From contig NC_052164.1 in NCBI RefSeq assembly GCF_902713615.1, positions 19,394,114 through 19,458,113 on the forward strand: a stretch of DNA of 64,000 bases, read 5' to 3'. Under the pieces are notes generated by a model. The model did no database searches. It worked only from the letters and a program-made list of their open reading frames with translations, and was not told the origin of the DNA. This stretch comes from Scyliorhinus canicula. Taxonomy: Eukaryota. Positions 30,478-36,756 of the stretch are shown piece by piece. A program made the translations under genes and the position numbers. Positions within the stretch are counted from its first letter, which is position 1. Each line of letters starts with the position of its first letter.

Positions 30478-30787
30478 TGTGGTGGGAAAAGGAAAACTCA
30501 GAAACAATCAGTCATGAATAAGAGCAACAGGAGAGAGAGGAAAGCGCGCCGAGGGCAGCAAGCTACAGTCTTTATTCATTCAAAAGATACAAGTAAATCT
30601 CCATTCCATATAAGGAGTTGTTTTTCTCCTAACTTTACTTTCTCGACCTTCAGACAGCTGGGATATCAGTTTTTCTCTCTCTCTCTCTCTCTAACCTTGC
30701 ACACACACGCACACAAAGGCCTGAAGCTTTAGGTAATCACACTATTAAGCAGTTATTCGATATTAAGTATTAAAATTGTCCATTGCT
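30478..30787 (-). repeat. ERV 3' LTR (lacks a 46-bp segment present in the 5' LTR)
   Basis: Direct repeat of 36395-36756, adjacent to the polypurine tract. Confidence 0.92.
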
Positions 30788-30788
30788 A

Positions 30789-30801
30789 TTCCCTCCTTTT
30801 T
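30789..30801 (-). promoter_or_regulatory. ERV polypurine tract
   Basis: AAAAAGGAGGGAA immediately upstream of the 3' LTR on the minus strand. Confidence 0.85.
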
Positions 30802-31046
30802 GTCATCCTAATGACAACATCTATCAAAATTTTAATCGCAGCCAGTCACCTAAGCAATATCTACATTCCCTTATTGTTAAACAAATGTTTGCTCAAAGAA
30901 CATATATCAGGTATCATCGTACTCCTGTAGATTTTTCAATAATACCATCATTAATCTTTGGTACATAAAATGGGAAACAGGTTGTCATTATAGCTATATG
31001 ACACAGCAGATTAGTCTATTGACAGTTCATTCTCGAATGGAGGTAT

Positions 31047-31415
31047 CTACTGGTTTGCCTCCTCTAAGTCAACTTGTTCCCTTGCTGCTGTTGGGTCAGA
31101 TAGTTTCAACATCCGGTAACTGCGGGACAGGTTTGCTATAGCTGCTTTCTGTAGGCATTGGCAGATGCATGGTCCAGTTTTGGGAAGTCCTTTCGCTGTG
31201 CTCGCCACCACCAGGTTCCAGTTGTATGGGCCACAGGGGTCTCGGCATAAGTACTTATCATCTCGCAAGTATTTAGAGTCATAGGGCCATGGGTCACACG
31301 TAAATGTGCCTGTCTCTCCTCTGGTTAATGTCACTGTAACCTCTCCAGCCCAATACGCTTTTCCCATTATCAGTTCCGGCATAAGCATCATGATAAGCGA
31401 CATTACCCCTTTCAT
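31047..31415 (-). CDS. env: Internally deleted env: signal-peptide-like leader, N-terminal half of an Ig V-set (CD300/pIgR-like) domain, env cytoplasmic-tail-like end; 122-aa open frame
   Basis: Lies between integrase and the PPT. MKGVMSLIMMLMPELIMG leader; GETGTFTC.PWPYDSKY....KYLCRDPC; ends GPCICQCLQK..., resembling the post-TM GPCI motif of gamma-type Env. Confidence 0.65.
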   Translation of the reverse strand: MKGVMSLIMMLMPELIMGKAYWAGEVTVTLTRGETGTFTCDPWPYDSKYLRDDKYLCRDPCGPYNWNLVVASTAKGLPKTGPCICQCLQKAAIANLSRSYRMLKLSDPTAAREQVDLEEANQ

Positions 31416-31453: not shown

Positions 31454-32480
31454 CTAACAATGACTAGCGTGAATCCACGTTGCTCTTTCTGCTACCTTTA
31501 TCGCTGTCTGCATCACAAGAAGCACCTGGAATGGTCCCAGCCACCGTCTAGCTCTCCAGCTCTTCCTCCTGAGGTCTTTCACCACTACCCAGTCGCCTGG
31601 CTGCAGGTCGTGCAACTTCCCCTCAGCCGGTCGTGGCAGGGCTTCCTTCACTTGAGCTTGCACCTGGGATAAAATTGCAGAGAGTTTTGTACAGTAACGT
31701 AACATTTCATCCTCACAATGGCTAGTCAGGGTCCTCGCGACGGGTTTTGGCCCAATTCCAGTGTTGGGTGGTCTGCCGAATAATATTTCAAATGGACTTA
31801 AATTGGCTCTACCTCTGACCCTAGTCCTCATGTACATTAGTACTACGGGCAGGGCTTTCGTCCACGGTATTCCCATTTCATCGCAACACTTTGCTAGCTT
31901 ATTTTTCAGAGTGGCATTTTCCCTTTCTACCGCTCCTCCACTCGCTTGATGGTATGCACAGTGTTGCCTTAGATCAATACCTAGGTATTCTCCTACCTGT
32001 TTCAGAGCCTGGTTTACAAATGGCGTGCCATTATCACTGCTGATTTTCTCTGGGATGCCCCATCGTGGAATGATTTCAGTTAACAGGGCCTTGGTTACTG
32101 CACTAGCATCTTGTTTGGCTGTAGGGAACACCTCTACCCACTTAGAGAACATGTCAACCATTACTAGGCAGTATTTCTTCCCTTCACTTGGGGTTAGCTC
32201 AATAAAGTCCATTTGAATATGCTCGAAGGGTCTCAGAGGTTCTGGGTGCGCCCCTGGGCTTATCTTAATTCCTCTCCCCACATTATTGGTAGCACAAATA
32301 ACACATCGCTCACAAAATTTCTGGGAGTAACTAGTAAAGCCTCTGGTGTACCAATGTGCAGCGATACTCTTGAACATCCCTCCTTTTGACACATGGTCCT
32401 TGCCGTGTGTCAACTTAGCATAATGAGGAAATAGCGCTCTCGGTAGACATGGCTTATCATTGGGGCCGTACCATCCCCCT
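31454..32480 (-). pseudogene. pol: ERV integrase (frameshifted at a T-run near 32481; premature stop at 31454)
   Basis: HHCC remnant (THG..H...C..C), QMDFIEL, VDMFSKWVE, ISSDNGTPF, SGGAVERENATLK (DDE), LQPGDWV, GPFQVLL, WIHASH. Confidence 0.93.
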
Positions 32481-33185
32481 TTTTTTTACCTTACCCCCTG
32501 CCTTTGACCATTCTTTCTTTTCTTCCCGTGAGGCTTGTGTTTGCAGGTCTTGTATGTCCGCTGTTGGGATAGGAACTGTTAGCATTGGCATGTTTACATT
32601 ATCACTGATAGGTTTTCGTGCTGCTGCTTTCGCTGCCGCATCCGCCCTTGCATTTCCCTGTGAGACTGGATCGGTTTTCCCTGTATGTGCGTCACACTTA
32701 CAGACTGCAATACACTCAGGTAAGAGGACTGCGTCCAAGAGATCAGAAATCAGCCCATGGTGCGTGATTGGTTTGCCTGTTGATGTTAAGAATCCCCTAT
32801 GTTTCCACAAGGTTCCGAAATCATGAGTCACCCCAAAGGCATACTGTCTGTGTAGATAGTAACGGACTTGCCTTCTGCAAGTTTACATGCTTCTGTAAGG
32901 GCTATCAATTCCGCAGCTTGTGCGGAGAGGTGTCTAGGAAGTGGCTCTGCTTTTAGTATGTTGTGTGATGTGACTATGGCATACCCCACACAGTTCTGGC
33001 CCGCTTCTCGATCTCTGAACGCAGACCCATCCACAAACAGTTCCATGTCGGGGTTTTGTAGGGGGGTATCCTGCAAGTCAGGTCGCGGACTACAAACTTC
33101 ATTAGTTAGAGCAACACAATCATGTGGTTCCCCATCACCTGCGGTGGGATGAAGAGTGGCGGGGTTAAGTATGGTACACCTTTTC
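32457..33185 (-). pseudogene. pol: ERV tether/RNase H (frameshifted at ~32830)
   Basis: LNPATL.P...PHDC, LFVDGS, SAQAAELIAL, IYTDS, RGFLTS.GKPI, HT....SQGNARADAAAK. Confidence 0.93.
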
Positions 33186-33820
33186 AACCACATCATGTTT
33201 TCCCTTTGCCCAAAGTTTCCCCGGAACTGTCTGCAGTCGCGGGTCATCGGCAGTAATTTGTACAAAACTCCAGGTTGTTCCCCTATGGCTCTGGTCTGAG
33301 GCGGGGACTATCTCCACCACTCTCTCTGCCCGAGATAGCCAGTTAAGATTCTTTTTATAAGCTCGCATACTCGTACTGAACCACACAGTTGTGTCTGAAA
33401 GCAGTGTCCAATCATTGACTTTGAGATTTTTAAGGACCCACGGTCCCAAATCTTTCCATTGTCTATTGCGCCCTTTCGCTAATGATACATGGGGGTGTGA
33501 CCCTTCTATTGTAAAGGGGTGTGGTACTCCTGATCTCAGACGTATTCTAGACAGGTCTAGAACCTATGCTCATCCCAATATAACTCCCATATCAGCAGCA
33601 CCTCAGACTTTTGCAACTTCCCGAGCCATTCATTCTCGTATTGATTATCTGGTCCCCCCAAGTGAATGTGTGCGGTGCAGTGCAGATTCTCCTTGGACAT
33701 AAAGTCAGTGTTAATAGGGTTAACGCGTTTGCGTGCTTCTCCCATGAGTGCTTGGTTTACTGAACTCACTGCCGCTGGAGTCAATCTCCATTCATAAATA
33801 TACATCAGGGGTCTGGCGTC
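33186..33820 (-). pseudogene. Putative 2H-phosphoesterase domain followed by the first residues of RT (RT core deleted)
   Basis: LHCTA (His at 33680-33682) and PHVSL (His at 33489-33491) motifs, one frameshift between them at ~33545-33562; then DPRLQTVPGKLWAKGKHDV, the typical RT N-terminus, cut off at ~33186. Confidence 0.65.
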
Positions 33821-33987
33821 AAATTTAACTCCTTGGATTCGTGCATCACACTCTCTATAGTCTGTGTAAAGATTTCAAGAACGTTAGTACAAGAGGTTAG
33901 CTTAAGCGGTTCTTCATTGCAAAGTATCAAGGTTTTGGACTCACCCTCTCCTTCAGGCATACCTCCATCGTCCTCTCCTCCCCTTTG

Positions 33988-35966
33988 TCAATTACCATTG
34001 TCATCATTGTCTCTTGGCCCTTCTTGTCTCTTTGTTGGGCAGTCTCTTGCCCAGTGATCCTTGCTTCCGCACGTGAAACACCCATCCGTCTTACCGCGTC
34101 CTCGACCTCCCCTGCCTCTTCCTCTTGTCTGTCCTCTACCTCTTCCTCGTTGCTGACCTTCTGCAACCTGTGTCACCATCTGCATCATAGTTAGCTGTGC
34201 TTGGTGACTCTGATCCTCCCTCCTTTTGTTCCGCTTCACCTTTTCTTGTGTCAGTAGCTTTTCAGCGTGCATGGCGTGTTGTTCGATTAAGTTGAGTTTC
34301 CCTGTGTCCCATGTAATACATGTATTTTTCACCTTCTTAGCGATGTCCTCACTTAATCCATTCATAAAACTGTTCCGCAGATGTGCCTCATACGGAGTCA
34401 CTTCAGCTGTATTTATGTCAGCTGGTGGTGTAAGTCCACTATGAGCGTTATGGACTTCTGTGAGCCGGGTCAGGTACTGGGACACAGTTTCACCGTCACG
34501 CTGCTTACACGTGGCAATTTTTGTCATGTCCATTCTTACCGGAAAGGCAGTTTGACAGGCGTCCACCAGACCTGTAACAAAGGCGTTATAAGGCACATTA
34601 TCTGCATGGTCTGGTTGAACTTGGCAAGCTCGTACATTATCACCTGGCCAATTGTATCGGATCTTGGGGATGTCTGCGCCCAATTTCCTCCCCAATAATC
34701 GCCGCATCTCATGAGACGTGGGGCGAAACTCGAGGCAGAACCTGCGTACCTCGCCTGCAAATTTCTGGCCTCCCGCTTCTCTGGGATCTGGGAGTTGTTC
34801 ATAGGCACATTCAATGTCTTTCATTGTCCACGGTCTGTGGACAAGTATCGGTTGTCCTTCCGGGCCCGCCACTTCTATCATTGGAGCATTGAGGACATTG
34901 CCGAGGAATTTACTGTCTCCTTCCCTTTCTTCGTCGCCTTTGTGATAATTAAACGGTTCTGGTGCATCTGGAAGGGCAGATTTAGGTCTGCACGACGCCT
35001 TACTCCGGGTATGGTGAGCTACTCGGGAGTCAGATGTAGTCATGGTACTGATGTCTGGGTAAAGGGGGTGACGGTCAGCTCCTGACGGTAGAGTTCCCAT
35101 GGACGTCTCAGGCATTCCCCGAGGGGGTTCACTATATGGTGGAGGGCTCGGTCGCGACTCTTGGCCTGGGTTCATGGGGGCCACTTGTGGAGGAGCCGTT
35201 GGCCTGGGAGGCAGCCATCCAGGTCGGGATCATCCGGAATGGGGTGACCTGAAATAGACTTAACACACTGAAGAGATTTGGTTTTATTTGCAGTTTCTTT
35301 GGGTTTCGCCTGTGATCGTCTATTTCTTATTTCTGCCTCTGTTTTCCACATACCGTAAGCCGCCCAATTTATTGTTTCTTTTTTCCTTTTGCTTTTCTTT
35401 CCACTTTCTTTTGCCCTCTGTTCTAACTGGGTTTTTAATAATTCCAATTGTCTTAAACTAAAACTTCCTCCTTCAGGAAAACCACACTCCTTCACCCACA
35501 TTTTAACTTGACTCACCGAGTCTTGTCCATAATTAGTAACCATGTATCGTATATTAGGGCTATTTAAACTTGCAGCATTTAGAACATAGAACATAGAACA
35601 GTACAGCACAGAACAGGCCCTTCGGCCCTCAATGTTGTGCCGAGCCATGATCACCCCACTCAAACCCACGTATACACCCTATACCCGTAACCCAACAACC
35701 CCCCCCCTTAACCTTACTTTTATTAGGACACTACGGGCAATTTAGCATGGCCAATCCACCTAACCCTCACATCTTTAGACTGTGGGAGGAAACCGGAGCA
35801 CCCGGAGGAAACCCACGCACACAGGGGGAGGACGTGCAGACTCCACACAGACAGTGACCCAGCTGGGAATCGAACCTGGGACCCTGGAGCTGTGAAGCAT
35901 TTATGCTAACCACCATGCTACCCTGCTGCCCCAATTTGTTTGTTTTTTCCCATTGCTATTACCCAT
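33988..35966 (-). pseudogene. gag: ERV gag (SINE insertion at 35581-35931; frameshift at ~35180)
   Basis: ATG at 35966 gives MGNSNGKK (myristoylation-type start); PPPY and LYPDI late-domain-like motifs; major homology region CKQRDGETVSQYLTRL; RG repeats; a single CCHC knuckle CFTCGSKDHWARDC; TGA at 33988-33990. Confidence 0.92.
35581..35931 (-). mobile_element. Young V-SINE subfamily inserted into ERV gag
   Basis: Near-identical reverse complement of 41658-41998; tail GAGGGCCGAAGGGCCTGTTCTGTGCTGTACTGTTCTATGTTCTATGTTCT. Confidence 0.9.
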
Positions 35967-36371
35967 GACCGGTCTCTTACTTGTGAGCCAGACTCACAGC
36001 GACCTTATCCTTTGTGACTTGATTTTCCTCCGGAGGCTCCCGCACGTAAGCGCGTCCGCTTAGGTGGCTTGGTTTTCCTAAACCAGCAAACCAATACCTA
36101 TCGTTTAGGTATTTTTACAGGTCCAACCTGTTTGATAGATCCAAGTCTAAATCCACCCGTCACTGTGAGACTGTTCACCACTGTCTATAATTAATAATAG
36201 AGCAATTCCTTACCACAGATTTCAGTCCGGATCCCGGTGTTGAGGTGACACAGTAATTCCTGGTCCTCTCACGCTGATGGCCATTGAAGCGTTTGAGATG
36301 AGGTGAAAAGCCCTCAAGGCGTCAGCGCTAACGCCTCCCCGGAATCTCCCAGTGTCTACCTCAAGCATGGG

Positions 36372-36389
36372 ATCCCATCCTCGTCGCCA
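36372..36389 (-). promoter_or_regulatory. ERV primer-binding site, tRNA-Ser(GCU)
   Basis: TGGCGACGAGGATGGGAT is complementary to the vertebrate tRNA-Ser(GCU) 3' end ...ATCCCATCCTCGTCG-CCA. Confidence 0.85.
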
Positions 36390-36394
36390 AGAAC

Positions 36395-36756
36395 TGTGGT
36401 GGGAAAAGGAAAACTCAGAAACAATCAGTCATGAACAAGAACAAGTTTAGTTTATTTCTTAGCTCTGCAGAGGACACCCTCCTCTCTCTACAGGCGAGAG
36501 AGGAAAGCGCGCCGAGCGCAGCAAGCTACAGTCTTTATTCATTCAAAAGATACAAGTAAATCTCCATTCCATATAAGGAGTTGTTTTTCTCCTAACTTTA
36601 CTTTCTCGACCTTCAGACAGCTGGGATATCAGTTTTTCTCTCTCCCTCTCTAACCTTGCACACACACACACACACACACACACAAAGGCCTGAAGCTTTA
36701 GGTAATCACACTATTAAGCAGTTATTCAATATTAAGTATTAAAATTGTCCATTACA
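36395..36756 (-). repeat. ERV 5' LTR (362 bp)
   Basis: TGTAATGG...CCCACCACA on the minus strand; internal (TG)n and GA-rich tracts; two AATAAA hexamers; GT-rich U5-like end. Confidence 0.94.

Follow-up and report, generated by a model that had tools for sequence, protein, structure and literature searches.

A CD300/pIgR-type Ig V domain at the front of Env in a fish retrovirus lineage, and a short env frame in Scyliorhinus canicula that probably arose by splicing

The closest described precedent for a host immunoglobulin domain in a retroviral envelope is found in the CXXC-less mammalian proteins Env-Dbi and Env-Per. In these, a SIRP-like host IgV domain is regarded as a captured receptor-binding domain (RBD), as set out in the accessible sections of a preprint (Hotzel, bioRxiv 10.1101/2024.03.17.585361). 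The same sections name no further RBD type among CXXC-bearing Env proteins, leave the host origin of the RBD-C type open and present accessory attachment as the stage assigned to a newly captured RBD. The terms 'fish', 'shark', 'CD300' and 'pIgR' do not occur in the main text of that preprint. A domain located N-terminally of a linker and the CXXC core occupies the RBD position in gamma-type Env (available parts of PMC9967133 and 10.1101/2024.03.17.585361). Concerning losses of env, Mtv copies without the rem intron and spliced HERV-H are described as spliced proviruses and are called rare (PMC11998498, accessible part). A search of the open-access literature yielded no description of an Ig domain in a fish Env. 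The accessible parts of PMC8672886, PMC12690878 and PMC9967133 do not mention one; the accessible part of PMC10072453 does not either, and the Ig-like domains treated there are those of CD4.

The locus analysed here is part of a stretch of 64,000 nucleotides from Scyliorhinus canicula, referred to as the window. Like the domain of Env-Dbi and Env-Per, as far as the preprint text at hand describes it, the domain found in this family forms the N-terminal part of SU, is a canonical host-type IgV that has the B-F Cys pair, is kept across host lineages and can be read as a captured RBD. The two cases differ in the donor, which is CD300/CMRF35/pIgR-like here and not SIRP, in the presence of a CXXC motif (CWIC) and in the fish hosts. 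Membership in the Env class with a SIRP-like RBD was rejected on the presence of CWIC and on the nearest host sequences, which are CMRF35-like or pIgR-like. Donor identity is far lower than in the SIRP case, so the capture is likely much older. With RBD-C, the type present in MLV, FeLV, EnvP(b)1 and ZFERV, the fish domain shares the arrangement of an IgV-like domain joined by a linker to the N-terminus of a CXXC-bearing gamma-type SU.

With respect to env loss, the family resembles Mtv copies of the rem type and HERV-H, in their accessible description, in having an in-frame env deletion equal to an intron within an LTR-bounded provirus that is present in many copies. It differs from these cases in that no accessory gene is known here, half of the frames are broken and the spliced form outnumbers the full one. 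Amplification of ERVs that have lost env was reportedly treated by Magiorkinis in 2012. Copies without a working env likewise outnumber those with one in this family and env was lost several times independently, whereas the commonest loss looks like splicing. Our overall reading, to which we assign a probability of about 0.78, is that the locus is a decayed class I ERV, that its Env carried an IgV domain captured once as a putative attachment domain, and that the short open frame in the window is a by-product of an env intron spliced out before reverse transcription.

The proviral features described below are located on the minus strand. Self-alignment identified a 5' LTR (TG...CA) at 36395..36756, preceded by the 4-base target duplication ATGG, and a 3' LTR at 30478..30788, followed by ATGG. 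The two LTRs differ by 5 mismatches in 254 aligned bases. A primer-binding-site-like stretch starting with TGG (36372..36389) is presumably of the tRNA-Ser type, and a polypurine tract is present at 30789..30801. The candidate leader splice donor TG/GTAAGG (cut at 36214/36213, within 36208..36216) had been proposed in the first-pass annotation as a place to look for spliced RNA; all 40 scored genomic DNA copies, being best matches only, are unspliced there. The gag gene (33988..35966) is broken by a frameshift and by a SINE (35580..35934, unstranded) that is missing from the sister copies compared. Its 3' region encodes a zinc knuckle, followed by a TGA in frame with pol. Remnants of pol (31454..33987) comprise pieces of RNase H and integrase, the latter with an early stop, and the 3' end of pol is an MLV-type integrase end. 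The LTRs, the 4-base duplication, the gag stop in frame with pol and the MLV-type integrase end are features of class I (gamma/epsilon-like) ERVs. The same class I features are present on contig L091, a relative.

Two pol deletions were also inspected. The protease was lost through a deletion of ~385 bases near 33835 that is common to some sister copies; its 5-base microhomology led us to reject it as a splice product. Reverse transcriptase was lost through a deletion of ~1.3 kb near 33187, observed in one of the 16 copies readable there, namely that of the window. This deletion (33188/33187) starts with GT and ends with AG, but with one extra base at the joint, and an origin by splicing was rejected on the GT..AG reading being off by one base and on its occurrence in the window's copy only.

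The first-pass annotation had described an open frame of 122 codons at 31415-31047 (minus strand) with a leader, half a V domain and an in-frame join to GPCICQCLQK, and translation confirmed each of these elements. Codons 1–23 (31347..31415) contain the env start and a hydrophobic leader, likely a signal peptide, with a helix at 2–19 in the model of a relative. The first half of a CD300/pIgR-type Ig V domain, strands A to C', follows at 31175..31343, as judged from sister copies and a viral V profile, against which it scores 63.6 bits. It features Cys 40, 57 and 61. At the junction (31170..31180, the cut being between 31175 and 31174) ~1.4 kb of env is missing, with ends that read GT..AG. The missing parts are the second half of the V domain, SU, the fusion peptide, the immunosuppressive domain (ISD) and the anchor. 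The Env cytoplasmic tail continues in frame at 31047..31174 up to a stop at codon 123, and the remaining tail (31011..31046), which extends to the stop used by most sister copies (codon 135), is unread in the window's copy. The annotation was correct in stating that the frame has lost the furin site, fusion peptide, ISD and anchor, and that only half an Ig fold is present, the F strand and its Cys being lost. Taken alone, the 122-residue product matched no Pfam family and no PDB sequence. The Pfam V-set check that the annotation had proposed gave no match for the half domain and 43.6 bits (cut-off 26) in a less-deleted copy. Only the less-deleted copies thus show the Ig identity of the half domain.

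Sister copies were collected from the genome of 4.2 billion bases with 751 bases around the frame, which yielded 44 matches from the 40 of 72 candidates that were scored. Most of these matches span the junction and eight end exactly at it. Some junction copies retain the protease and RT stretches missing from the window. The whole V domain is held by seven genomic loci (one further search, all 20 candidates scored), all of which are broken by stops, frameshifts or insertions. Spliced-type copies thus outnumber full copies by at least 32 to 7. Natural frames read from stop to stop give the layout of the full copies as leader, IgV, acidic linker, CWIC SU core, furin site (RQRR), fusion peptide, ISD (QHRLALD..), CX6CC, anchor and tail. 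The V domain ends with ...DGGVYWC... and the tail is the same as in the window. Two full copies reached 43.6 and 43.9 bits for V-set against the cut-off of 26, and TLV_coat scored 66.4 bits (Pfam). The less-deleted copies have the gamma-type Env layout, with CXXC, furin site, ISD, CX6CC and anchor. Both elements that the annotation had suggested seeking in undeleted env copies, a DxGxYxC strand and a gamma-type TM, were found. The outcome that it had named as a refutation, no Ig match together with a full-length env devoid of the F-strand motif, did not occur.

The evidence supports the identification of the domain as a CD300/CMRF35/pIgR-type V domain at the front of a gamma-type SU. The PDB sequences closest to the full V domain are pIgR and CD300a. 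A model of the V domain reached a pLDDT of 88.6, and the Foldseek ranking for the V-only model is led by CD300c, CD300a, pIgR D1 and CD300lf. VIA-align of the same model gave a Z of 13.2 for CD300a (rmsd 2.1, 98 residues), 12.8 for TREM2 and 12.4 for CD300c. The fold scores of CD300, TREM2 and pIgR differ by less than 1 Z unit and count as tied, with Siglecs slightly lower. In 10 of 10 aligned viral V domains the four Cys, the C' Trp and DxGxYxC are invariant, including both Cys of the extra C-C' pair, which would form a disulfide. The B-strand Cys and the F-strand DxGxYxC, the latter absent from the window's copy along with its strand, were present in all 23 viral rows of a larger alignment. 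Short spacing of the C-C' Cys was found in 23/23 viral rows, 42/43 teleost-type host rows and 0/10 host rows from the own genome.

The viral domain has the V-set fold, K-Y-x-C-x(2-4)-C, RF, DxGxYxC and the D-x-Y domain end in common with fish CMRF35-like and pIgR-like proteins and with mammalian CD300a/c/lf, pIgR and TREM2. It differs from these host receptors in being at most 36% identical, in a longer B-C loop in most cases and in having no intron. A host receptor gene was rejected as its identity, since the domain is situated within env, between pol and the LTR, and is not accompanied by a receptor stalk, anchor or signalling tail. We regard it as derived from the CD300/pIgR receptor family, but not as a member. 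A WLRD-like motif is the phosphatidylserine-binding motif of CD300a. It was found in 0/23 viral rows, and also in 0/43 and 0/10 host rows; given its absence from the host rows too, the motif says little about the ligand, and phosphatidylserine binding by the viral V domain is neither supported nor excluded by these alignments. In a search of a viral structure library, only DNA-virus Ig proteins appeared among the 50 matches listed, with identities of at most 21%, and a scan of IMG/VR with the V alignment confirmed none of 21 stretches.

In a model of the whole Env, the V domain and the SU core form separate confident units, with a low-confidence linker between them. Relatives without the domain exist (P0008 and P0016), which suggests that the SU core may be able to bind a receptor alone. 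By analogy with the RBD position, and in view of the loss in some relatives, the captured V domain likely serves as an accessory attachment (receptor-binding) domain ahead of the SU core. It is less conserved than the SU core (42–76% compared to 55–84%). Such fast drift with kept Cys, Trp, RF and DxGxYxC would fit a working surface domain.

Alternatively, the V domain might be an immune decoy or modulator that binds Ig or an immune ligand and has no part in attachment. Such a role would agree with the nearest host proteins being immune receptors, with the absence of the domain from P0008 and P0016 and with the many Ig-domain proteins carried by DNA viruses. We nevertheless consider it unlikely. 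The domain is fused at the RBD position of an entry protein, with the CXXC core following after a flexible linker, its loops diverge fast between virus groups, and no secreted form of the whole domain was seen in the own genome.

The first-pass annotation had explained the loss within env as a deletion. The position of the joint, between 31175 and 31174, was confirmed; its nature was not, since the missing segment reads as a spliced-out GT..AG intron and not as a plain deletion. All 32 skipped copies examined, which were obtained with a query that selects for such copies, have an identical junction. In full copies, the missing 1.4 kb is bounded by CTG/GTAATC and by a T-rich TATAG/GACC, and only GG (2 bases) is common to both ends. 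In the read alignment, this joint is reported as CT..AC, read on the opposite strand. The donor at the junction is not a full consensus match, and the relative on L091 has neither splice site. We conclude that the junction is likely a GT..AG intron removed by splicing. According to the proposed mechanism, an intron inside env would have been spliced out of genomic RNA, the spliced RNA would then have been reverse-transcribed and integrated, possibly many times, and the env-less copies would have spread within the germ line. Three RNA runs contained 25, 7 and 17 family reads in 13–15 million, with one raw read and one contig across the joint. Both can be explained by the skipped DNA copies.

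An ordinary template-switch deletion in one founder, with GT..AG at its ends by chance, would be in line with the several other env and pol deletions in the family. However, among random deletions placed in env, a GT..AG reading was obtained in 1089 of 200000 (0.5%). The junction has 2 shared bases, compared to 5–8 in other deletions, and a T-rich tract lies ahead of its AG. The other env deletions (one in 5 copies, one in 3 copies and singles) have 6–8 shared bases or none. A copy tree was calculated from 1720 columns with 27 skipped copies, 7 full copies and 1 other (3 left out for low cover). All copies radiate from one point, at ~1% each, and the skipped copies are not grouped. No branch joins them, and one starred pair consists of a full and a skipped copy. 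A single skipped clade, as expected from one founder, was not rejected by the AU test (p 0.099). In sum, we regard a template switch as quite unlikely. In a codon reading of the env deletions (L112–L116, L037 and two alike, L117 and L118), the three multi-copy deletions keep the leader and the Env end in frame, while the two single-copy deletions do not, a contrast drawn from few cases.

It could also be argued that the spliced frame represents a genuine accessory mRNA of the virus comparable to MMTV rem, with leader, part of SU and Env tail, and that the copies are its retro-copies. The exact in-frame GT..AG junction, the frame kept in all three multi-copy env deletions and the same build in rem-intron-deleted Mtv copies (PMC11998498, accessible part) point in this direction, and skipped copies that do not stand apart from full ones are what recurrent splicing predicts. 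A pN/pS of 0.51 (0.36–0.72) was obtained for the short frame, compared to a neutral expectation of 0.73–0.76. This borderline deficit of replacements counts against the by-product reading. The integrase gave 0.66 (neutral 0.68–0.73) and other frames 0.59–0.86. Still, the cut interrupts the V fold at the cost of the F-strand Cys, and the leader has ~23 residues and no Arg-rich stretch, compared to 98 residues in Rem. The frame is broken in 16 of 31 copies, in contrast to the deleted Mtv envs, all of which retain theirs in the available account. The splice sites are missing in the L091 relative, and the junction was crossed by one raw read. An accessory mRNA is therefore distinctly improbable in our view.

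The origin of the domain was examined with the viral V profile, which yielded 1981 matches in 1.84 billion representatives; the best 150 of the 1981 were examined. Per-domain scores were 76–162 bits for viral-type and at most 55 bits for host domains, a gap that is partly built in by the viral profile itself. Ten host matches were looked up, all from ray-finned fish, and comprise five CMRF35-like or pIgR-like proteins, one FcR-like protein and four unnamed ones. One teleost receptor domain shares 33% identity with the viral one (E 2e-12), and the best identity of any host domain to the viral V domain is 36%. A V-domain tree was calculated from 111 columns and comprised 23 viral rows, 43 host rows from the database and 10 from the own genome. 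No outgroup was included, the hosts were chosen by likeness to the viral profile, and viral fragments and near-duplicates were left out. In this unrooted tree, all 23 viral rows are on one side of a branch with 100/96 support, and the hosts nearest to them are teleost CMRF35/pIgR-like receptors. The host V exons of the own genome form a separate 100/98 group together with one database row, and the CD300-like cluster of this genome was rejected as donor on that grouping. At least 15 host CD300/pIgR-like V exons, some in tandem, form this cluster at C15:137.2–137.7 Mb of the genome (G000; L092–L105 and L109), and 16 of 21 matches in the own-genome search for host V exons are located there.

An Env-body tree of 21 rows, with an outgroup chosen by us, showed the same two viral sub-groups as the V-domain tree. 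Two IgV-less Envs nest inside the viral sub-groups and two fall outside. The simplest reading of this pattern would be a single gain of the V domain with later losses. The host-to-virus direction and the donor lineage are suggested by parsimony. As far as sequence comparison can tell, one old capture from a CD300/CMRF35/pIgR-like receptor, shared by the whole fish Env lineage, is likely. Under this scenario, a virus would have acquired the V domain of a fish CD300/CMRF35/pIgR-like receptor once, long ago. The annotation had proposed that this virus captured a host Ig-receptor domain as an SU appendage. The presence of a CD300/CMRF35/pIgR-type V domain ahead of a gamma-type SU agrees with that proposal, but the capture appears old and lineage-wide, and not an event in which this virus took the domain from its present host.

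The domain could instead be an old viral Ig fold of the RBD-C type, as in EnvP(b)1 and ZFERV, with a likeness to CD300/pIgR that reflects convergence or very deep ancestry. The EnvP(b)1 RBD ranks 7 for the whole-Env model (E 2.6e-7), but the match is poor (TM 0.48, rmsd 11.6) and does not appear among the matches listed for the V-only model, so that the link to EnvP(b)1 amounts to one loose fold match of a predicted structure. RBD-C has no B-F disulfide or known host source according to the accessible text (10.1101/2024.03.17.585361), whereas in the fish domain both Cys pairs of the CD300 type are retained and the sequence itself matches host receptors, as in the teleost domain with 33% identity. 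Membership in RBD-C was rejected on the invariant B and F Cys, and the reading as a whole appears highly unlikely.

The open mini-protein is nothing special, as the short frame decays like the rest of the provirus. The annotation's statement that no other viral frame here is free of stops and frameshifts was not confirmed. In most unbroken skipped copies the frame has 134 codons, and in the window it ends at a stop in codon 123, 12 codons early. Unbroken frames were found in 15 of 31 copies, compared to 8 of 24 for a 798-base integrase stretch that is twice as long. Stops occur in 12 of the 31 short frames, with 0.32–0.39 expected per copy. A half V fold without the F-strand Cys is unlikely to fold. 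Co-option of the frame by the host as a secreted decoy or restriction factor, to which the 15 unbroken copies and a few sense-strand RNA reads might be taken to point, is scarcely credible and was rejected on the decay rates (1.8 breaks per kb compared to 1.4 in integrase), with the truncation of the window's own copy, the doubtful folding and the 7 to 25 reads in 13–15 million for the whole family also speaking against it. We rate the 122-residue frame as a likely by-product of the loss of env, and nothing convincing points to a separate function for it.

The IgV-Env lineage extends beyond this genome. An unbroken relative of 615 residues combines V-set and TLV_coat and is 76% identical in the V domain and 90% in the TM ectodomain. 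A search with this relative returned 19 proteins, of which 17 were scanned; 5 were above the V-set cut-off and 4 more were weak. A search with the V alignment returned 21 proteins. Besides this genome, perciform and cypriniform fishes and a chimaera carry the IgV-Env. The viral-type proteins, or other members of their clusters, are assigned to the hosts Siganus, Xyrichtys, Epinephelus, Danio, Carassius, Cirrhinus, Onychostoma, Leuciscus, Anabarilius, Xyrauchen, Sinocyclocheilus, Paramisgurnus (strongly remodelled) and the chimaera Callorhinchus. Contig L091 features open gag, pol and IgV-env in retroviral order, with no LTR pair. These open genes, including the domain, indicate that the IgV-Env layout is not a gene-calling artefact. 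The domain pair is already visible in database annotations.

On a wider scale, we put forward, at slightly below even odds, that a large fish retrovirus lineage has long used a stolen CD300/pIgR-type domain as its RBD while moving between cartilaginous and bony fishes. It would represent a CXXC Env at the step from which the MLV-type RBD has been postulated to arise. Surviving intermediates would range from canonical forms (perciform, this genome) to heavily remodelled ones (loach). The case would be a second, independent and apparently older IgV capture, now within the CXXC-bearing Env class and with a nameable donor family. Many natural sequences, IgV-less relatives and graded divergence make the model 'accessory binder first, obligatory RBD later' testable, and the isolated V domain of ~105 residues is suited to binding assays. 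Proviruses that derive from spliced RNA are rare, and the family would be a further example, in which they are the commonest form. The 122-residue frame itself is likely unimportant, and the weight rests on the lineage-wide IgV-Env.

Several minor observations were made along the way. The Callorhinchus 'Ig V-set domain protein' P0091 in UniRef runs into an Env SU motif and is probably a piece of env. A fish gene annotated as 'Ig V-set' can thus be part of an env. Cypriniform-type IgV-Envs (P0011, P0014, P0019, P0059 and P0195) have a long leader, an RPWHPFR motif in several cases and a second furin-like site directly ahead of the V domain. A loach Env (P0021 and P0208) has a strongly remodelled N-terminal domain that keeps the C, YFC..PC, YC pattern and has no Pfam Ig match; it is possibly a late stage of divergence. 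For runs X14 and X18, from two other organisms, the share of env words present was 0.27 and 0.19, respectively. The window (1–64000) is filled with many copies of a few SINE-like repeat families. Finally, an insert of ~200 residues was observed in pol between protease and RT (33833–33300 of the window, minus strand). It had no match in a Pfam search and is also present in L091 (2088–6431) and L075. It contains two H-x-T/S motifs (LHCTAH and PHVSLA), by which we take it to resemble a 2H phosphoesterase.
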